Origin: Candidatus Nomurabacteria bacterium | GTDB lineage: Bacteria; Patescibacteriota; Minisyncoccia; Phycocordibacterales; UBA9973 | Direction: 5' to 3' | Length of the DNA stretch: 64,000 bases | NCBI GenBank assembly: GCA_052035405.1 | Contig: JBPOHQ010000004.1 | Coordinates: forward strand, 70,687-134,686 | Shown: piece after piece, positions 4,230 through 42,611 of the stretch | Numbering within the stretch: the stretch's first letter is position 1 | Layout: each line of letters starts with the position of its first letter | The notes under the pieces: generated by a model | What the model saw: the letters and a program-made list of their open reading frames with translations, nothing else | Told to the model about the DNA's origin: nothing | Databases searched by the model: none | Position numbers and translations under genes: made by a program

Positions 4230-5591
4230 TTAATTTGAAAGCAAGTCTATGTCTGCTTGCATTTTTTCTCTTAAAGCCATAACGTTGTTACCATAGCTGA
4301 CTATCTCTTTCTCTCTTTTTGATTTAGGATTCTTAGGACAAGAAGATCCAGAATAATATTTACATGCTGCATTACGTTCAGCTGTATATGTACCAGCATT
4401 TGCGCCTAATTCACCCATATAAGTTGAAGTTGCCGTAATAGCATGAAATGGATCCCATGGATTTGGCATGCCAGATATACCAACAGCTTTTGCTATCTTT
4501 GAAGCGAAGAGTTCCCAAGTAGAAGGTATAAATTGTGAAGGACCCATCGCTCCACCATATCCAGATCCTTGTGGGCAAGATAGTGGTGTACCAGCGAGAG
4601 GTAAACCTAGATCTGCCATGATTCTTTTGTATGGTTCAGTATCTCTAGGAGATTTCATTATATTTTCCCAAGATTTTGAAGCAGGGTCTGTCGACCTATT
4701 ACAAGTTCCAACATTAGCTCCTAGATTTGTCTCTTGTCTTAGAATAGCGAGAGTAAGTGCCGGATGTACGCCCGTAGCCTTTTCTGCTTTTTCAGCGTAC
4801 GATACTGCTGTTCCAAAAGGTATTGCTTTTGTATCACGAAGGGTAAACAATGCTGCTCGTATTTTATCTGCTTGTGCTTTTTTAGTAGCGGCAAGTTTCT
4901 GATATTCGGCTTCTTTGTTTTTACTTATAGATAATAACTTCTTTTTTTCAGCTTCGGTCTGAGCTACTTTTTTCTGACTTAGTTCTAATTCTATTTTTGC
5001 ATCAGTTTCTGCATCTTGTTTTTTTTCAAGGTCCTTTTTTTCTTCTTCTGTTTCAGACTTTACCCCTTTAATTTCATCTACCGATCTTTTTATGGCCTCT
5101 TTTAACGAAGAATAGGATTCCAAATCTCCATAAAAACCAGATAAATTTTCACCGGAGAGTAATAAGTGTACCAAGTTTTCATTATCAAAATCATTAGTAT
5201 TTCTAATAAGTTGTCCAAGTGACTCATACTGATTTTCAATTTTATCAGATAGGTTTTCTATCTTTGAATTTTTTTCTTTTATAGATACTTTAAGCTGAGC
5301 AATGACTAAAGCTCGGGCTTTAACTTTTGTCTTGAGTGCATTTATTTGAGCGTTTAAATATTTAACATCTCCAGTAAGAGTACCAGTGTTCTTTTGTTGC
5401 TCTTTTTGTTTATTCAAAAGATCAGCAAGTTCGGCTTCAATATTTCCAAGTTCGATTTTACAATAATCTTTATCCGCTTGAGAAGAAGCTGTGGTTAAAG
5501 TTAGACAATCAAAAGCTGCCTCTACTTTTTTGAAAGGTAGATGAATGAATAATCCGAGTATGAAAATAAAAACTATGGCTTTTTTGTCCAT
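4230..5591 (-). CDS. secreted coiled-coil protein with C-terminal lytic transglycosylase (MltB/SLT_2-like) domain
   Basis: N-terminal signal peptide; ~250 aa heptad-rich K/E region; C-terminal GPSQFIPSTW motif matching the MltB-family G(P)MQF(M)PSTW signature. Confidence 0.6.
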   Translation of the reverse strand: MDKKAIVFIFILGLFIHLPFKKVEAAFDCLTLTTASSQADKDYCKIELGNIEAELADLLNKQKEQQKNTGTLTGDVKYLNAQINALKTKVKARALVIAQLKVSIKEKNSKIENLSDKIENQYESLGQLIRNTNDFDNENLVHLLLSGENLSGFYGDLESYSSLKEAIKRSVDEIKGVKSETEEEKKDLEKKQDAETDAKIELELSQKKVAQTEAEKKKLLSISKNKEAEYQKLAATKKAQADKIRAALFTLRDTKAIPFGTAVSYAEKAEKATGVHPALTLAILRQETNLGANVGTCNRSTDPASKSWENIMKSPRDTEPYKRIMADLGLPLAGTPLSCPQGSGYGGAMGPSQFIPSTWELFASKIAKAVGISGMPNPWDPFHAITATSTYMGELGANAGTYTAERNAACKYYSGSSCPKNPKSKREKEIVSYGNNVMALREKMQADIDLLSN

Positions 5592-9796: not shown

Positions 9797-11239
9797 TTAT
9801 TTTATTAACTCTTTTAGTAATTTAATAACAACTTGAGGGTTTGCTGAGCCATTTGTTTCTTTGATTATTTTACCAACGAGGGACATGATAGCGTTTTCTT
9901 TACCACCCTTGTATGTAGTCACAACTTCAGGATTTTCAGAAATTATTTTTTCTACTATGCCCTTGAGTTCACCTTCGTCATTTTTCTGTAGAAGGTTTTT
10001 CTCTGTTGCTATCTTCAGCGGAGATTCATCGTTTAATACAATCATAGCGAGGATATCTTTTGCTCCACGAGAAGATATAGTGTTTTCTGAAAGCATATTT
10101 GCTAGCTCTGCAAAGTTTGTAGCACTTGGAAGTTTTACTTCGCTGTTTGCTTTTTTCAATCCCAAAAAGTCTGTCGTTATATAGTTTGACGCTACTTTTA
10201 TTTTTTCTGCATTACCGAGAATTTTAGCAACTTCTTCAAACCATAAAGCTAAAGACAAGTCATTTATATAACTCTCAATATCCTCATCTTTAATTCCAAA
10301 ATCTTTTCTGTAGCGTATTCTCTTTTCTTCTGGTAATTCCCCTAAGCTTTCTTTTAATTCTTTAAATTCTGGGCCACCAAAAGCTTCATAAAGTTTCATT
10401 TTAGCAAGGTCTGGATCGGGGAAATACCGGTAGTCCTCACTAGACTCCTTTTTCCTCTGAGACATTGTTTTCTGTTTTGCTTCATCCCATCCACGAGTTT
10501 CTTTGACTATTTCATCTTGCTTCCCTTCTTCCCAGAGTTCGATCATTCGTTCTACCTCATATTTGATAGCTTTTTCTACAGTCTTAAAAGAGTTTAAGTT
10601 TTTAACCTCCACATAACCTTTCCATAATTTGTCTTTCTCTGGAGACACAGAGACGTTCGCCTCTACACGCATCTCACCCTTTTCCATATTCGCTTCTGAG
10701 GCACCGATGTATTGCAAAAGTAGCTGATACTCCTTTGCAAAATTACTTGCCACCTTTGCTGCTTCATTAGGGTCTTCAAAAGTATGCGGTTCGGTCACAA
10801 GCTCCATCAGCGGAACTCCAGCACGATTAAAATCAATTAAAGAAAAATCTCCTCTATCATGCTTGTTATTTGCAGTATCTTCCTCTAGGTGAATCCGAGT
10901 CACATCCATATTTGCAAGTCGTCCACCAGAGACTATTGGGTATTTGAGCTGAGAAATCTGATACCCTTTTGGAATATCAGGATAAAAATAGTTCTTACGA
11001 TCAAACTCTGAGAAGTCAGCAATCTTTGCTCCTATAGCAAGACCTACACGGATAACTTGCTCTATGGCCTTTTTATTAGGAACTGGTAATGCTCCTGGAT
11101 GTGCCATACATACAGGACATATATTAACGTTTGGTTTTGTTTCGTCCGGATCGTTCTTGCAAGCACAGAACATTTTTGTCTTGGTCTTGAGCTCCGCGTG
11201 TATTTCAAGTCCGATGGTTGTGTAATATTTTTTCTCCAT
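9797..11239 (-). CDS. gatB: Asp/Glu-tRNA(Asn/Gln) amidotransferase subunit B
   Basis: 480 aa; N-terminal GatB core (TIGLEIHAEL, cysteine cluster CPVCMAHPGALP) and C-terminal GatB/YqeY domain; no gatA or gatC adjacent. Confidence 0.88.
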   Translation of the reverse strand: MEKKYYTTIGLEIHAELKTKTKMFCACKNDPDETKPNVNICPVCMAHPGALPVPNKKAIEQVIRVGLAIGAKIADFSEFDRKNYFYPDIPKGYQISQLKYPIVSGGRLANMDVTRIHLEEDTANNKHDRGDFSLIDFNRAGVPLMELVTEPHTFEDPNEAAKVASNFAKEYQLLLQYIGASEANMEKGEMRVEANVSVSPEKDKLWKGYVEVKNLNSFKTVEKAIKYEVERMIELWEEGKQDEIVKETRGWDEAKQKTMSQRKKESSEDYRYFPDPDLAKMKLYEAFGGPEFKELKESLGELPEEKRIRYRKDFGIKDEDIESYINDLSLALWFEEVAKILGNAEKIKVASNYITTDFLGLKKANSEVKLPSATNFAELANMLSENTISSRGAKDILAMIVLNDESPLKIATEKNLLQKNDEGELKGIVEKIISENPEVVTTYKGGKENAIMSLVGKIIKETNGSANPQVVIKLLKELIK

Positions 11240-11256
11240 TGTTTTATTATTATAGC

Positions 11257-12267
11257 CTAAATCTTTTTTAAAATCTTAGTAAGTTCATCTTTGAATTCTT
11301 TAGTACTTTTGTCGTCAAATAGTGATATAGTAAAGACCTTTTTACCGAGTTTTTCAAACTTAGCTTTTTCTTTTTCAATAACTTTCTCTAGTTTTGCTCC
11401 TTCTAATGGTATTACATCAGTCTTTGTTAGTATTATTATCTCATCTTTTTCTGCTAAGCCTTCAGATCCAAGACCTACGGACTTATCATACTTCTCTAAC
11501 TCCTTACGTATCTCTTTATAACTCTTCATCATATTTGGATTCTCAAAAGATACAAGATGAGCCAAAACTTTTGTCCTTTTAATATGTCGCAAGAATTTTA
11601 TACCAAGTCCCTTGCCTTCTGAGGCACCTTCGATAACTCCTGGAATATCAGCGATAATGTATTTATAAAACACTCCGAGGTTTGGATCTAGCGTAGTAAA
11701 AGCATAGTCTCCTACTTTTGCATCAGCGTTTGTAAGTACATTCAAAAGGGATGACTTGCCAGCGTTTGGCAACCCTACAAGTCCAAGATCAGCAAAAAGT
11801 TCGAGCTCTATTTGAAAATTTCCTTTTTCTCCTTCAGCTCCTTCATTTGCTTTAAGTGGAGTCACATTCGTAGAGCTTTTAAAATGCTCATTCCCAAACC
11901 CTCCATACCCACCCTTGAGTAGTAATACTTTTTGTCCTTCTTTTTCGAGTCTATACACTTCTTCTGTATCTAAGTTTGTGATGACTGTTCCTACAGGAAC
12001 TTCAAGCATAAAATCCTCTCCGCTTTTTCCATGAAGACTTTTTCCCCCACCGTCTTCACCTTTTTCTCCAATGAACTTCTTTTTTGCTTTATATTTTGAA
12101 AGTATATTTACATCTCTTACAGCAACAGCATAGAAGTCTGCTCCACGACCTCCATCTCCTCCAGCAGGACCACCTTTCGGTATAAATTTTTCTTGTCGCC
12201 AGCGTACAACACCGTTTCCACCACGTCCTGCTTCTGCGTATATTTTTAATTCGTCAGTAAATGCCAT
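11257..12267 (-). CDS. obg: GTPase Obg/CgtA
   Basis: N-terminal Obg fold with Gly-rich loops (GGPAGGDGGRG) followed by G-domain (GLPNAGKSSLL, DIPG). Confidence 0.88.
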   Translation of the reverse strand: MAFTDELKIYAEAGRGGNGVVRWRQEKFIPKGGPAGGDGGRGADFYAVAVRDVNILSKYKAKKKFIGEKGEDGGGKSLHGKSGEDFMLEVPVGTVITNLDTEEVYRLEKEGQKVLLLKGGYGGFGNEHFKSSTNVTPLKANEGAEGEKGNFQIELELFADLGLVGLPNAGKSSLLNVLTNADAKVGDYAFTTLDPNLGVFYKYIIADIPGVIEGASEGKGLGIKFLRHIKRTKVLAHLVSFENPNMMKSYKEIRKELEKYDKSVGLGSEGLAEKDEIIILTKTDVIPLEGAKLEKVIEKEKAKFEKLGKKVFTISLFDDKSTKEFKDELTKILKKI

Positions 12268-16900: not shown

Positions 16901-16961
16901 ATAGTACCCTTACCTGAGTGGTATCTAATATTTTTCTTGCTTATACCTCTCTTAAAATAGT

Positions 16962-17053
16962 GGTGAGCGTTCAGCAGATAGAACTAAACGATTCCTTACC
17001 CCACAAGGTCGGTTTGGTGGATTTTAGTAAAGTAAAACGACCCTTCTCGTGCG
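16962..17053 (+). ncRNA. element X copy 1: conserved ~91-nt structured intergenic element (unknown ncRNA family; strand uncertain)
   Basis: Shares a 5' block GGTGAGCGTTCAGCAGATAGAAC and a 3' block ACGACCCTTCTCGTGCG with copies at 39291 and 40373; internal hairpin CCTT-N8-AAGG covaries between copies. Confidence 0.55.
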
Positions 17054-17740
17054 TCAATTATCTAAATCAATCTTGTCTAGAGAAATTTGTTCTTTAAAAG
17101 TTTTTCCTGTTTCTTTTTCCGCAATGTATGCCATTAGTAGAAGTAAACCTGTGGTATATCCAAAAATTAAAGCGTATAGAGATTCATCCAGTTTCTGTTT
17201 AAGTCCTCCATCGTCATTATATACATTAGCTTCAACTCGATACTTCTTATCTTTCACATATATAAAAACATTTGCCGTCTTATGTACCGAAGAATCTCTT
17301 AAATTTCTTAGGTCAGAAAAAATTTTATTATCAAGATGTTTTCTAAATTTTTCTTCAATTTCTGGATATTCACCTGATTGAACCTTCTTAAGAAATTTAT
17401 TAAAACTTTTTTGCTGGACACCATATTGATCTTTGAGAAAAATGAGTAGGTAGTCATAAATAGATCTTGCTAGAGTTAAATAGCTTTCAAATAACCCTGC
17501 CAATATCTCATGGTTTACATCATGTTTCGCATCATTTATTTCTTTTTCACCAGCTTTGTATAAAATGTCCCCAATTATTCCAGTCCTAAAAAGACGAAAA
17601 AAGATTTGTGATGAAATTTGACCTTTCTTTTTATGGAGTACATTTTTAACAAAATAATTCTGAGATAATGCATGAAAAGCATATGAGGATGGTTTATCAA
17701 AACTAAATTTAAAATATTTATTTGTAAGCTCTAATGACAT
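17054..17740 (-). CDS. hypothetical protein
   Basis: 228 aa, no recognised motif; bracketed by element X copy 1 and tRNA-Glu. Confidence 0.5.
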   Translation of the reverse strand: MSLELTNKYFKFSFDKPSSYAFHALSQNYFVKNVLHKKKGQISSQIFFRLFRTGIIGDILYKAGEKEINDAKHDVNHEILAGLFESYLTLARSIYDYLLIFLKDQYGVQQKSFNKFLKKVQSGEYPEIEEKFRKHLDNKIFSDLRNLRDSSVHKTANVFIYVKDKKYRVEANVYNDDGGLKQKLDESLYALIFGYTTGLLLLMAYIAEKETGKTFKEQISLDKIDLDN

Positions 17741-17785
17741 ATACCAATATCATATACAGCACCTTCTCGTGCGCGCTGTTGACGG

Positions 17786-17857
17786 TGACCTCACGGAGAA
17801 TCGAACTCCGATTAGCGGATTGAGAACCCGCTGTCCTAACCGTTAGACGATGAGGCC
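17786..17857 (-). tRNA. tRNA-Glu (anticodon CUC)
   Basis: Reverse complement GGCCTCA-TC-GTCTAACGGTTAGGAC-A-GCGGG-TTCTCAA-TCCGC-TAAT-CGGAG-TTCGATT-CTCCG-TGAGGTC-A(CC) folds as a cloverleaf. Confidence 0.75.
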
Positions 17858-39191: not shown

Positions 39192-39234
39192 AAGTTAAAT
39201 ATACTATTAGTGTTAGTTTATTGCTAGTGACATT

Positions 39235-39293
39235 CTTCACAAAAACGCAAAAGACTGGAGCAGTCCAGTCTTTTCTTTATAAGCGTTTTTATG
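39235..39293. terminator. ~58-nt nested-palindrome terminator module, copy A (AAAAACGC-AAAAGACTGGAGCAGTCCAGTCTTTT-CTTTATAA-GCGTTTTT)
   Basis: Near-identical (one extra A) to 42478-42540; inner 10-bp stem followed by T-run, outer 8-bp inverted repeat. Confidence 0.65.
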
Positions 39294-39381
39294 AGCGTTC
39301 AGCAGATAGAACCAAACAATTCGTTACCCTGTAAGGCTATTTTAGCTAGTTTTAGATAATTTTATCGACCCTTCTCGAGCG
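39291..39381 (+). ncRNA. element X copy 2
   Basis: TGAGCGTTCAGCAGATAGAAC...TTACCCTGTAAGG...CGACCCTTCTCGAGCG; same spacing as copies 1 and 3. Confidence 0.55.
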
Positions 39382-39409: not shown

Positions 39410-40303
39410 CTATGTTTTGATAATTGTACCAATAAATGAACTTTCTGTATCGAATGATTTGTGAGTATATTGAGCGAGTTCAGACTCAAGTGATTCCTTG
39501 GTGTATCGTAATGACTGAAACACAATCAATTTGTCACCCGACGTAATACCAATGCTTTCTAGTGCTGAATTGGTATTAATCACTAAACATGACACTCGAA
39601 ATCCGTCGTCTGCAATTCTTGGTGAGATATCAGTGAATGGATCAAGTCCGATAAGTCGAACCTTGTCATCTACTAGTCGAACAGCATCTTCTTGATAAAC
39701 TTTTTGCAATTCAACCATATCTACACGATCACGCATCTGCGCATTTATAAACACAAAACCGTTTGTTCCCACAATGTCAGTAAGAAGCTTTAATATTTCT
39801 TGTGGTGCGTAATTTGAAAACGTAAGACCAAGAGAAACAAACCGAGGAACTGTGGATTCTCCAAGAACCTCAGGTAATTCTTCAAATGAGGCTTTCACTT
39901 TTCGTACAGGAATCCCTTGTGGTGTTGCGTGTGAATCTGCCATTTCAAGAAAGTGATCACTGATATCTACAGGAACATATATAAAAGATTTACCTTGTTT
40001 TTTAAGTTCATCAAACAGGAACTGCTCCTTGTGTTCTGTGCCTGGACCAAGATCAATGTATTCAAAATTATTTGGGAGTATATCTGCAATATTTTTTGCA
40101 ATTAGTTGTAGATATTCATGTTCTGGTTTTGTGACTAGTTTGAAATACGAAGTATCTTCTTCTTGTAACTGTTCGTAAACTGCATCGCCCGAACCAATGT
40201 AAATAAGAAGGGAATCCGAAAAATCCCAAATCCCATTATCTAGTTTCTTGAGAGATTTGAAGGCTCGATCCTTAAACCATTCTTGGTTGTATTTTCCATC
40301 CAT
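39410..40303 (-). CDS. SAM-dependent methyltransferase of the EgtD / Methyltransf_33 (histidine N-alpha-methyltransferase-like) family
   Basis: Collinear with EgtD: YIDLGPGTEHK (cf. ELGSGTSEK), YVPVDIS, SLGLTFSNY (cf. FLGSTIGNL); 297 aa. Confidence 0.55.
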   Translation of the reverse strand: MDGKYNQEWFKDRAFKSLKKLDNGIWDFSDSLLIYIGSGDAVYEQLQEEDTSYFKLVTKPEHEYLQLIAKNIADILPNNFEYIDLGPGTEHKEQFLFDELKKQGKSFIYVPVDISDHFLEMADSHATPQGIPVRKVKASFEELPEVLGESTVPRFVSLGLTFSNYAPQEILKLLTDIVGTNGFVFINAQMRDRVDMVELQKVYQEDAVRLVDDKVRLIGLDPFTDISPRIADDGFRVSCLVINTNSALESIGITSGDKLIVFQSLRYTKESLESELAQYTHKSFDTESSFIGTIIKT

Positions 40304-40316
40304 GTCTCAATTGTAT

Positions 40317-40347
40317 CACAAAAACAGCTCCCTTCGGAGCTGTTTTT
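40317..40347. terminator. rho-independent terminator (AAAAACAGCTCC-cttc-GGAGCTGTTTTT)
   Basis: Perfect 11-bp stem with flanking A/T runs between element X copy 3 and the methyltransferase start. Confidence 0.65.
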
Positions 40348-40372
40348 GTATGCTTCTCGTGCTAGCCCGAAA

Positions 40373-40463
40373 TGGTGAGCGTTCAGCAGATAGAACCTTT
40401 TGATTCATTGCCCAGTAAGGTCATTTACTACTTTTCATGATATCAGAACGACCCTTATTGTGC
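40373..40463 (+). ncRNA. element X copy 3
   Basis: GGTGAGCGTTCAGCAGATAGAAC...CATTGCCCAGTAAGG...ACGACCCTTATTGTGCG; preceded by an extra CTTCTCGTGC motif at 40351. Confidence 0.55.
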
Positions 40464-40478
40464 GACCTAGTAAAAAAG

Positions 40479-41516
40479 CTACGAAATTTCTTTTGCATGC
40501 TTCAGATATTCTAGGAAGGCAATCTTCATCTCCTTATTACTACCACTCTTGTTTATATCCGAACGGCTTCCTGACATAATTGTATTCACATCAGGCAGGT
40601 TCCAGGCTGTCTGGTCACTCAATATCCACCTATCATGGGTATCTCTAATAAGAGTGCTGTCGATTTTGAGCCATTCTAAACTAATACCCTTACTAGATAG
40701 CTCTTTTTTTAGATCCCGGTACTCCTTCAAGACCTTTGGAGTTATATGAACATCAAGCCCTAAGGAAAGAATTTTAATATCTTTGATTTTATTCGCATCA
40801 GCAGTCTCCCATATGTATTCAAGGCCAGCAGAAGTGAAATGCTTATCGAGCCAATAGATATTACCTTTACAGCCTGACAATACCCGTTTAAGCCACATCT
40901 TATTTCCATACGGACGTGTTGGATCAATAAATATACTTGATGGTATCTCCGTTTCTTCTGCTGTCTGATTGAAGAGAACTTGAATTGTCTTGAATTTCTT
41001 TGAATATGTAATCAAGCCGACCGAGTTCATCATCAACAGAAGATTTGTAAGAGGACTCTCATCCATATAACACCAGAAACCCCTACTCTTCAAAATCGAC
41101 AAGGCGTTCTCTTTTTTTGGATTTTTTACTCCGTAAAGCAACTGAAGTATTGCTTCACATGGAGGAAATTGGAGTAACCCTTTCTTGAGTGCTTCGTTAG
41201 CCCTATCTACCTCAGAACGAATATACCTACCGTGATAATAAGAAGTTCCAAGTTCAGTAAGACTGTCTGAGGTAATCTCCATAAATCCTAGTGACCTTAG
41301 AAAATCAATGTCATCGTTGGATCCATCGGAATCTTCATCTTCAGCAATCGCCTTCAATATTTTTTCGTAAGAACTCCAAGTTCTCTGAGGAAGAAGATGC
41401 TCTTCGTTGTTATTCTCCTGTAGATTCTGTGTCTCCATTTTCATTTGAACCATTGGTTTTAGAGTACTTGTCACTGAACCCCGTAACGGAAGAAATAAGT
41501 GCCTTGTAGTCATCAA
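40479..41516 (-). CDS. hypothetical protein (unknown family), gene A of an overlapping pair
   Basis: 345 aa, no recognisable catalytic signature; annotated start overlaps upstream gene by 107 nt (a later Met would cut this to ~29 nt). Confidence 0.5.
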   Translation of the reverse strand: MMTTRHLFLPLRGSVTSTLKPMVQMKMETQNLQENNNEEHLLPQRTWSSYEKILKAIAEDEDSDGSNDDIDFLRSLGFMEITSDSLTELGTSYYHGRYIRSEVDRANEALKKGLLQFPPCEAILQLLYGVKNPKKENALSILKSRGFWCYMDESPLTNLLLMMNSVGLITYSKKFKTIQVLFNQTAEETEIPSSIFIDPTRPYGNKMWLKRVLSGCKGNIYWLDKHFTSAGLEYIWETADANKIKDIKILSLGLDVHITPKVLKEYRDLKKELSSKGISLEWLKIDSTLIRDTHDRWILSDQTAWNLPDVNTIMSGSRSDINKSGSNKEMKIAFLEYLKHAKEIS

Positions 41517-42141
41517 GAAGACCTATATTCGTAAGAATATCTTTTGGAAGAATCAAACTGATACCACTTTTCCCAAATGGGATTACGGTGTGTTCTGAGT
41601 CTGTCGCAATAGTAGTTTTAGAACCTGGTCTGGTAATCTGCGCTTTTGCAACTGGCTTTCTTGTGGGTGTATTTGATGGAATTCTTGGAGTCTTTATCTG
41701 AGCGGAAACCTCTCGAAGACCTGCTTGTTCACAAAGATACACAAATGCTGGTACGGCACCCGTAGCAACTCGTGAACTTATCTTGTATACATGCATGAAA
41801 TCGTTATGCAGTTCATCCTTGCCCATGGTACATGCCTCAGGAACAACTTTGAGGAGGGCCTCATATGAGGTTTTTACCATCTCAACAAGTGCCTGTGCTT
41901 TTGCATCACCCTTATATCCCATTTTTGCCATCAAGGATGTACTATTGGAGTCGGCATCTATCAATCCAAGGAATCTCAAGGAGGCAACAGCCAAATTTGC
42001 ATCACTGCTGGAGAATGAGTGGGTAAGGAAATAATCAGGATTCAATGATGTCATACTTCTTGCACTTATCAGAGAAAGTACTTTCTCGAGTCTAGTAGCA
42101 CTCAAATACGCTGGTGACAATGGTCTTTTTTCTTCAGTCAT
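41410..42141 (-). CDS. hypothetical protein (unknown family), gene B of an overlapping pair
   Basis: 243 aa; structured N-terminal ~150 aa, Pro/Thr/Lys-rich linker, C-terminal ~60 aa; no known motif. Confidence 0.5.
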   Translation of the reverse strand: MTEEKRPLSPAYLSATRLEKVLSLISARSMTSLNPDYFLTHSFSSSDANLAVASLRFLGLIDADSNSTSLMAKMGYKGDAKAQALVEMVKTSYEALLKVVPEACTMGKDELHNDFMHVYKISSRVATGAVPAFVYLCEQAGLREVSAQIKTPRIPSNTPTRKPVAKAQITRPGSKTTIATDSEHTVIPFGKSGISLILPKDILTNIGLLDDYKALISSVTGFSDKYSKTNGSNENGDTESTGE

Positions 42142-42477
42142 AGTTTTATGTGAATTAATTTATAATGATATTATAAATCTATCATACCCATACAACTAAA
42201 TCAAGTTTTTATTAAAATAATAAAAGCCTTGTAGATAAGCATTTTTAGTGAGAAAATTTTTTATAATATAAAATTATCACTCAGTCAATATATAAATAAT
42301 GTCCATTAAACTCTAAATCCCATCTACTTGAAGCGTGTACTCAAATTAATTATAATATCCATTTTATTTAAACACTCGTGCGAGCTGTTGATGGTGAGCC
42401 ACAATAATTTGTTCGCCGTCGCTCACAAATTTTCCAGCCCCGGACTCAGCTGTTTTTCTTACTAGAAAAACATGCTT

Positions 42478-42540
42478 CCGTCTTCACAAAAACGCAAAAA
42501 GACTGGAGCAGTCCAGTCTTTTCTTTATAAGCGTTTTTGT
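42478..42540. terminator. ~58-nt nested-palindrome terminator module, copy B, abutting the tRNA-Glu(UUC) 3' end
   Basis: CGTCTTCACAAAAACGCAAAAAGACTGGAGCAGTCCAGTCTTTTCTTTATAAGCGTTTTTGTG; see copy A. Confidence 0.65.
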
Positions 42541-42611
42541 GACCCTACAGAGAATCGAACTCTGATTACCGCCTTGAAAAGGCGATGTCCTAACCGTTAG
42601 ACGATAGGGCC
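42540..42611 (-). tRNA. tRNA-Glu (anticodon UUC)
   Basis: Reverse complement GGCCCTA-TC-GTCTAACGGTTAGGAC-A-TCGCC-TTTTCAA-GGCGG-TAAT-CAGAG-TTCGATT-CTCTG-TAGGGTC-A; near-paralog of the Glu-CUC gene at 17786. Confidence 0.75.

Follow-up and report, generated by a model that had tools for sequence, protein, structure and literature searches.

Our analysis indicated that element X, a repeat of about 95 bases found in three copies in the window (the whole 64,000-nucleotide stretch of DNA analysed here), is probably a DNA-level boundary module: the distal (attR-side) arm of islands or cassettes that insert immediately behind the 3' ends of tRNA-Glu genes in Patescibacteria-like bacteria. Each copy of X lay downstream of a tRNA-Glu gene and in its orientation, separated from it by variable cargo. 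We took as the sense strand that of the upstream genes, which is the minus strand of the window, and named the first block of X on it A (GCACGAGAAGGGTCG) and the last block B (GGTTCTATCTGCTGAACGCTCAC); a 12-nt linker, A, a middle of ~55 nt and B follow one another in a conserved module of ~95-107 bp. The three copies shared one orientation. The 20-mer GAGCGTTCAGCAGATAGAAC occurred exactly three times in the window and never in 100 shuffles, and the 3' block CGACCCTTMTYGWGCG had three exact occurrences as well. The three-copy, same-strand repeat with two conserved end blocks that a sequence-only reading of this DNA had proposed is real, with copy 3 at 40374-40464, and each copy does adjoin a CDS end, as that reading had stated, in every case the 3' end of a minus-strand gene (Table 1). 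Its placing of terminators next to the copies held for copies 2 and 3, where terminator hairpins follow on the minus strand. The tRNA-like minus-strand end that it had described was ...GAACGCTCACCA in copies 1 and 3 and ...CTCATAA in copy 2. The window has a G+C content of 35.5% and six scattered tRNA genes (ARAGORN), and the genes tested around the islands were housekeeping in appearance.

On the tRNA strand, the islands are laid out as tRNA-Glu, TCAC, 12 nt, GCACGAGAAGG (referred to as A'), cargo and X. Island 1 runs from tRNA-Glu(ctc) through a weakly HEPN-like gene to copy 1. Island 2 starts at tRNA-Glu(ttc) and continues with the genes of the DUF5343 and 345-aa proteins, copy 3, the methyltransferase gene and copy 2; here an ordinary trailer, not linker and A', comes after the tRNA gene. 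The whole second island was bracketed by a ~58-nt direct repeat (42481-42538 and 39234-39290), ~90% identical over 80 nt when the flanks were included. Such a long flanking direct repeat was absent at island 1. Several unrelated contigs also share a conserved motif immediately past the terminator behind tRNA-Glu or X, namely GTGAAGACGGAAGCAT and then TTTTTC..GAAAAA (window 42472-42487, minus strand; L006 1793-1808; L032 845-860 and L036 1234-1249 in sense coordinates; L numbers denote loci). The motif may mark where another element ends, or be a conserved feature with a regulatory or RNA role.

Table 1. Coordinates of the X copies and of the surrounding island features in the window
Feature	Position	Strand	Description
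X copy 1	16962..17053	-	Distal end of the island behind tRNA-Glu(ctc); A block GCACGAGAAGGGTCG 17038-17053; ~55-nt variable middle; B block GGTTCTATCTGCTGAACGCTCACC 16962-16985
Island 1 cargo	17054..17740	-	Directly before copy 1; 228-aa protein; weak HEPN_Cthe2314 match of 24.2 bits, under the Pfam cut-off of 27.1
Proximal junction, island 1	17758..17783	-	(TCAC)C GTCAACAGCGC GCACGAGAAGG TGCT; 12-nt linker and A' directly after the tRNA
tRNA-Glu(ctc)	17784..17857	-	Proximal boundary of island 1 (proposed attL side)
Trailer after X copy 2	39234..39290	-	Repeats, with its terminator, the trailer of tRNA-Glu(ttc) at 42481-42538 (~58 nt)
X copy 2	39291..39381	-	Final unit of the tRNA-Glu(ttc) island; A block 39366-39381; B block 39291-39313; end CTCAT, not CTCAC
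Island 2 cargo, second unit	39410..40303	-	Directly before copy 2; SAM-dependent methyltransferase (Methyltransf_33)
Terminator hairpin	40320-40349		After the internal junction of X copy 3
Internal junction after X copy 3	40351..40373	-	(TCAC)C ATTTCGGGCTA GCACGAGAAG; 12-nt linker and A'
X copy 3	40374..40464	-	Internal unit of the tRNA-Glu(ttc) island; A block 40449-40464, degenerate GCACAATAAGG; B block 40374-40397
Island 2 cargo, first unit	40479..42141	-	DUF5343 protein and 345-aa protein
345-aa protein	40479-41516	-	Directly before copy 3; without family match
DUF5343 protein	41410-42141	-	Matches PADLOC candidate defence protein PDC-M34A
tRNA-Glu(ttc)	42539..42611	-	Proximal boundary of island 2

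About 35 relatives of X were found in low-GC metagenome and MAG contigs. A gapped-pattern scan with one genome per species returned two true relatives, one in a pond MAG and one in a Candidatus Saccharibacteria MAG. The 18-mer scan of metagenome contigs gave 74 loci, ~23 of which were true relatives, all of low G+C and with GTGA before the 18-mer; its invariance among those ~23 loci is a result of their selection by construction. Furthermore, a profile search within the fetched loci revealed eight copies that had not been chosen via the 18-mer. Their B (sense 3') block varied, for example to GGTTCTATCTCGAGAAGGCTCACC or ...GTTGAATGCTCAC, with GGTTCTATC and (G)CTCAC retained. The ends of X were strongly conserved across genomes of 30-44% GC, and many copies appeared decayed and had variant B blocks. 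A scan of viral contigs found no X, and no excised circle or contiguous attP was found on an extrachromosomal contig. Exact-protein look-ups for strain polymorphism of the window islands yielded only short one-sample contigs with an identical arrangement, broken at repeats. L080 and L121 (4.7-4.8 kb; Logan sample SRR34217540) were the sole public contigs with exact copies of two window proteins, and their ends fall in X or tRNA-Glu repeat regions, indicating that these repeats break short-read assemblies.

The order tRNA-Glu, cargo, X recurred in the six metagenomic loci that extend far enough (L002, L006, L008, L018, L061 and L073), and tRNA-Glu-N12-CGAGAAGG at one end together with X at the other was found in the window and at least 12 other loci. 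When the spacing in the pattern TCAC-N12-G(C/T)(A/T)CGAG(A/T)AG was varied, a spacing of 12 appeared in 25 distinct contexts (~21 true junctions), compared with 7 or fewer for the other spacings. What precedes these N12 junctions is tRNA-Glu, B or a TGTCAC repeat, and inside arrays the linker and A' follow B directly (copy 3, L008 and L061). As the same linker and A' come after the tRNA and after B, the islands are chains of units, each with a left arm that ends in TCAC and with CGAGAAGG as its right arm. The A block itself is preceded by a 12-nt linker, and in at least six loci also by a TGTCAC repeat ending in GTCAC; thus X resembles a complete 'empty' unit made of right arm, ~55 nt and left arm. 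In L081 and L083, cargo lies between the TGTCAC repeat and A.

The TGTCAC direct repeat, TGTCACTTTTGTCAC, was observed 12 nt upstream of the A block of X or upstream of cargo genes in L003, L015 (e.g. 4876-4890), L021, L022, L026, L056, L063, L070, L081, L083, L087 and L098, and its second GTCAC takes the same place relative to A' as the GGTCAC of the tRNA. A promoter reading of this repeat was rejected because its spacing to any -10-like hexamer was inconsistent. The cargo was variable, in either orientation and often defence-like, including HEPN_AbiU2, AAA_15/21, an AbiEii-type ATPase, DUF2726, SMODS, HamA with a helicase, methylases and PDC-M34A. Within islands downstream of a complete tRNA-Glu, partial tRNA-Glu 3' ends followed by linker and A' were also seen (CCGTAGGGTCACC, L006 1955-1997; GGATCACC, L075 1850-1878), and they suggest further, possibly different, integration events.

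A large serine recombinase was associated with full-size islands of this kind. Those of 11-15 kb in L081, L083, L098 and L099-L101 have tRNA-Glu-N12-A'-terminator at the start and X at the end, and encode a 440-aa protein with Resolvase, Recombinase and Zn_ribbon_recom domains. The same recombinase was located upstream of X in L015 and L021, and L084 and L102 showed the tRNA side only, the L084 contig stopping before the far side. Its family had at least 8000 matches at E<=1e-20. The best 120 clusters were 76-96% identical to the query, one of them named Candidatus Pacebacteria, and this level of identity suggests an element that may have spread recently. Viral relatives of the recombinase were distant (51-63% identity) and carried no X. 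Within 10 kb of sub-lineage P0078 neither X nor tRNA-Glu was present, and in sub-lineage P0043 X occurred only as variants whose B block differs, tRNA-Glu being likewise missing within 10 kb. No member of the 440-aa family was detected in the 64-kb window by tblastn, and the window islands have no recombinase gene; the three units there would therefore be relics, or non-autonomous cassettes moved in trans.

Several gene groups were observed beside the 440-aa recombinase. A conserved module precedes it in L081, L083, L087-L094 and L098-L101, comprising an N6/N4 DNA methylase, a ~130-aa protein and mostly also a ~485-aa terminase-like protein. In L099-L101 (e.g. L099 2130-5922), HamA and a DEAD/ResIII helicase, a Hachiman-type defence pair, lie between the TGTCAC repeat and the methylase-recombinase core. 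In L084 (9221-10624; also in L085 and L086), a reverse transcriptase gene stands beside a bAvd-like gene inside a recombinase-bearing tRNA-Glu island, and this pair is the signature of a diversity-generating retroelement.

A second family of serine integrases, of ~505 aa, revealed how block B is used. Its ORFs end in antisense tRNA: the tails ...LVTLQRIEL-stop and ...LVTSRRIELRLAD-stop match antisense tRNA-Glu, and, judging from the shared pattern, ...LVTLPGIEPGLPA and other tails may correspond to the antisense T-arm of other tRNAs. Antisense-tRNA tails were present in most of the 120 family members listed. In ten fetched loci (L104, L105 and L107-L114) the ORF overlapped tRNA-Glu by ~29 nt, as in L107, where the ORF at 10001-11518 meets tRNA-Glu at 11490-11564. 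One identical integrase (P0199) was found on 24 contigs; it sits at tRNA-Glu(ttc) as well as at tRNA-Glu(ctc), in at least three different neighbourhoods among the places shown, and its element of ~6 kb has a replication gene and a restriction-modification pair. These antisense ORFs indicate that the bacteria have serine integrases specific to tRNA-Glu. A serine recombinase ORF of 546 aa in L098 runs antisense through the trailer into B, ending ...LV/SVQQIEL..., and a distantly related recombinase-like ORF (23% identity) enters B in the same register in L021 and L026. Thus, at three loci B is used like a tRNA-Glu end. The 160 nt after tRNA-Glu in L073 and the 165 nt after X in L058 were 85% identical from TCAC on, these two loci being the one pair in which an occupied and an empty junction were compared. 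Taken with the integrase ORFs that enter B, this match places the B end and the tRNA end at the same junction. In sequence, B is only moderately similar to tRNA 3' ends and shows no preference for Glu: 13-15 of 24 end-anchored positions match, equally well for Glu, Ile and Val. The minus-strand end of X therefore behaves as a tRNA 3' end by position and integrase read-in, as its earlier description as tRNA-like would have it, though its likeness in sequence is modest.

These observations are consistent with the following mechanism. On the tRNA strand, one unit would consist of the tRNA-Glu end ...GGTCAC, 12 nt, GCACGAGAAGG, in some cases a terminator, the cargo, X (12 nt-GCACGAGAAGGGTCG-~55 nt-GGTTCTATCTGCTGAACGCTCAC) and the host trailer. 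A large serine recombinase, for which the 440-aa protein is the candidate, would join the element site (B, 12 nt and CGAGAAGG) with the chromosomal tRNA-Glu 3' end and its trailer, giving tRNA, 12 nt and CGAGAAGG on one side and X followed by the trailer on the other. Since B ends in the TCAC of the tRNA and occupies the tRNA-end position, the far end of each unit would re-create a tRNA-end-like landing site, and this would explain the tandem arrays (copy 3, methyltransferase, copy 2) as well as the integrase-less units, some of which may still be mobile. The joint B-CC-linker-A' is ~46 bp long, with GGTTCTATC and ACGAGAAGG placed symmetrically at 15-23 bp from the CC centre and TTCT/AGAA motifs symmetric about CC. 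GATTCTC of tRNA-Glu and AAGAGAGGT in the trailer of copy 1 were both 5 bp closer to that centre. In serine integrases, the zinc-ribbon-domain motif is at positions 16-24 in attP and 11-19 in attB (PMC3783163). In our reading the motif positions of the joint appear to match this reported geometry, and B/linker-A' can thus be read as the element site and tRNA-Glu/trailer as the host site, with CC as the putative crossover point.

Some features do not fit this mechanism. The distal junctions of L081 and L083 have TCAC-A (CA) and their tRNA junctions TCAC-C (CC), which conflicts with CC as the shared central dinucleotide. Nor would serine integration be expected to leave a long direct repeat such as the ~58-nt one around island 2, where the tRNA moreover lacks the linker and A' behind it. 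In addition, the conserved A block (~75-90 bp from the junction) and the conserved middle positions lie outside the ~25 bp that a serine attP arm needs, and the mechanism does not account for them. The build of X as a seemingly complete 'empty' unit and the cargo between the TGTCAC repeat and A in L081 and L083 do not fit it either, and sub-lineages P0078 and P0043 depart from the usual pattern. A crossover inside the A motif, with cassettes inserting at GCACGAGAAGG, was considered and rejected; it predicts X beside the tRNA, an arrangement that was never seen.

It is conceivable, and we put it forward only tentatively, that Patescibacteria practise an integron-like capture of cassettes by a serine recombinase acting in trans, in which integrase-less cassettes of one or two genes, often for defence, are stacked behind tRNA-Glu. 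Cassettes would then start with N12-CGAGAAGG and end in X, and X would be a decoy tRNA-Glu 3' end, at which the next cassette, and also unrelated integrases specific to tRNA-Glu, could land. The A block, as a second CGAGAAGG motif in X, would be a working site of cargo exchange.

The integrase ORFs that enter B raise a different reading, namely that X is, or is also, coding on the plus strand of the window. In the excised (attP) form, an integrase ORF would take its C-terminal tail, VSVQQIE(L/P)..SLP.K..RPFSC, from X, and integration would swap this tail for antisense tRNA-Glu codons. We consider this unlikely. In L021, L026 and L098, recombinase ORFs do enter X (the L098 ORF has 546 aa, where ~505 is usual in its family); in the integrated form, the family's tails consist of antisense tRNA, and the tRNA-coded LVTLQRIEL resembles the X-coded LVSVQQIEL. 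In 14 copies the B-to-A spacing was 78 nt, a multiple of three, and 9 of the 14 were open over 31 codons. However, neither sub-family showed codon-position periodicity (0.946/0.954/0.949, permutation p=0.51), the other sub-family had a 79-nt spacing with a conserved early stop, and stops occurred in many copies. The X-type tail was present in only 2 of the 120 family members listed, and the window has no integrase body to which the tail could be joined. A 59-aa plus-strand ORF (VVSVQQIELNDSLPHKV...) traverses copy 1 at 16918-17097; it is a relic of the frame that integrase ORFs enter in other genomes, and no gene annotation is warranted here. On the minus strand, a small ORF (EKGR..LLK..LxGKE..SIC-stop) looked codon-like in a few copies and was rejected for its frequent stops and frameshifts and for the lack of period-3 variability.

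The sequence-only reading had taken X for a functional RNA whose internal hairpin was maintained by compensatory changes. If X were a structured small RNA or a riboregulator in a 3' UTR, its transcription would accompany or closely follow that of the upstream gene and stop at the next terminator. Such a reading would agree with the minus-strand order gene, X, terminator in copies 2 and 3 and many relatives, with the conservation of the X ends, and with the TGTCAC repeat just upstream in six loci, which could be a promoter or operator. However, the compensatory signal was apparent in three sequences and gone in thirty. Across 30 non-redundant copies, the two proposed helices scored 0.074 for covariation, below the 0.096 that shuffles averaged, and of 500 shuffles 480 reached or exceeded the observed value; nor did the named hairpins covary above slid controls. 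What looked 'compensatory' are two columns, one of purines and one of pyrimidines, that vary independently, with GC in 10 copies, GU in 7, AU in 5 and no pair in 8. The second hairpin, GTTC-N8-GAAC, described as invariant, was broken in 6 of the 30 rows and never covaried. RNAalifold found 0 consensus pairs on either strand of these copies. Single-sequence RNA folds were not more stable than those of shuffles (z -0.46 to +1.19), and X as single-stranded DNA gave no hairpin signal (fold z 0.06 to 0.67). An Rfam scan of X on both strands returned nothing credible even at E<=10, and at gathering scores only six tRNAs passed in the whole window. The statement that no copy folds as a tRNA was borne out: neither ARAGORN nor the Rfam tRNA model made a call at any copy, and an intron-containing tRNA and a tRNA-like fold were likewise rejected, no cloverleaf being found. 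Copies that look decayed, with variant B blocks, are numerous, and a strict linkage to tRNA-Glu islands is unexpected for a riboregulator of unrelated genes. We therefore regard an RNA function of X as very unlikely.

Least probable, and scarcely to be credited, is an autonomous miniature transposable (MITE-like) element or an integron attC-like single-strand recombination site, for despite the conserved ends and variable middle, the single-gene cassettes in arrays and a ~13-nt direct repeat, ACAGGTCTTG(T/A)TTG, that flanks the TGTCAC repeat plus X in L021 and L026, X has no terminal inverted repeats, no inverted repeats spanning it, no single-stranded DNA hairpin and no R''/R' core sites, no integron-type tyrosine integrase was seen beside the arrays, and X keeps a single orientation relative to tRNA-Glu and is not scattered. 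What stands of the earlier suggestion of a tRNA-derived or mini mobile element is that X belongs to mobile DNA; an autonomous mini-transposon it is not, as it lacks terminal inverted repeats and is always in tRNA-Glu islands.

As a boundary module, X can be compared with several known systems. In our reading it is similar to the attachment sites of phage serine integrases such as A118/LI, Bxb1 and phiC31 in its short arms around a putative central crossover and in its outer motifs, which appear to form an imperfect dyad ~15-23 bp out and to have a counterpart ~5 bp nearer the centre on the host side (PMC3783163); genes with Resolvase, Recombinase and Zn-ribbon domains are inside the related islands. 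It differs from them in having the very 3' end of a tRNA gene as its target, in its size of ~95-107 bp against ~25 bp per arm, and in the A block, which repeats the right-arm motif. Units of X also stand in tandem arrays, many without integrase, and one island has the ~58-nt flanking repeat. Tycheposons of Prochlorococcus are cargo-carrying elements at tRNA genes in which newer elements push older ones inward, with degenerate remnants scattered through the island; 910 of 937 use tyrosine recombinases and a minority a large serine recombinase, and their islands are flanked by partial tRNA copies (10.1101/2020.12.28.424599). X islands resemble them in the tRNA-linked accumulation of cargo by successive integrations and in the streamlined genomes of the hosts. 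In contrast, X is a distinct conserved module and not a tRNA copy, having only its position and the TCAC end in common with the tRNA, and the host phylum is different. Integron cassettes are likewise single, promoter-less or short, and form one-directional arrays at a fixed landing site, and attC shares with X conserved ends and a variable middle; X, however, lacks the attC-type imperfect palindrome, hairpin and R''/R' cores, no IntI-type tyrosine integrase is involved, and the cargo is in either orientation. SCCmec and other SCC cassettes are inserted by the Ccr serine recombinases at the 3' end of one conserved gene, orfX. With SCC cassettes, and with cis-mobilisable elements (CIMEs) beside ICEs, each insertion re-creates a usable site, resulting in tandem cassettes, some without recombinase genes. 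Their boundaries are short direct repeats of the target; the SCC target is protein-coding, and ICEs and CIMEs use tyrosine recombinases. Nothing resembling the ~95-nt X module is known to be part of SCC, ICEs or CIMEs.

A limited literature search found no description of X islands, which is weak evidence of novelty, and a paper on gene exchange in Patescibacteria did not mention tRNA or integrases. What sets X islands apart from known systems is a serine-integrase target at the very 3' end of tRNA-Glu, a conserved distal module of ~95-107 bp that does not copy the tRNA, the repetition of the CGAGAAGG half-site, and the group of hosts. For genome annotation, conserved 'structured-looking' intergenic repeats beside tRNA genes may be recombination arms, and compensation that seems present in three copies can be lost on comparison of thirty. 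If our reading is true, it would supply predicted attachment sites for two very widespread families of serine integrases, the 440-aa family and the ~505-aa family that reads into tRNA genes, and serine integrases with defined sites are in demand as genome-integration tools. It would also explain how, in bacteria with tiny genomes, a single fixed place on the chromosome serves to gather and exchange genes for defence and accessory functions.
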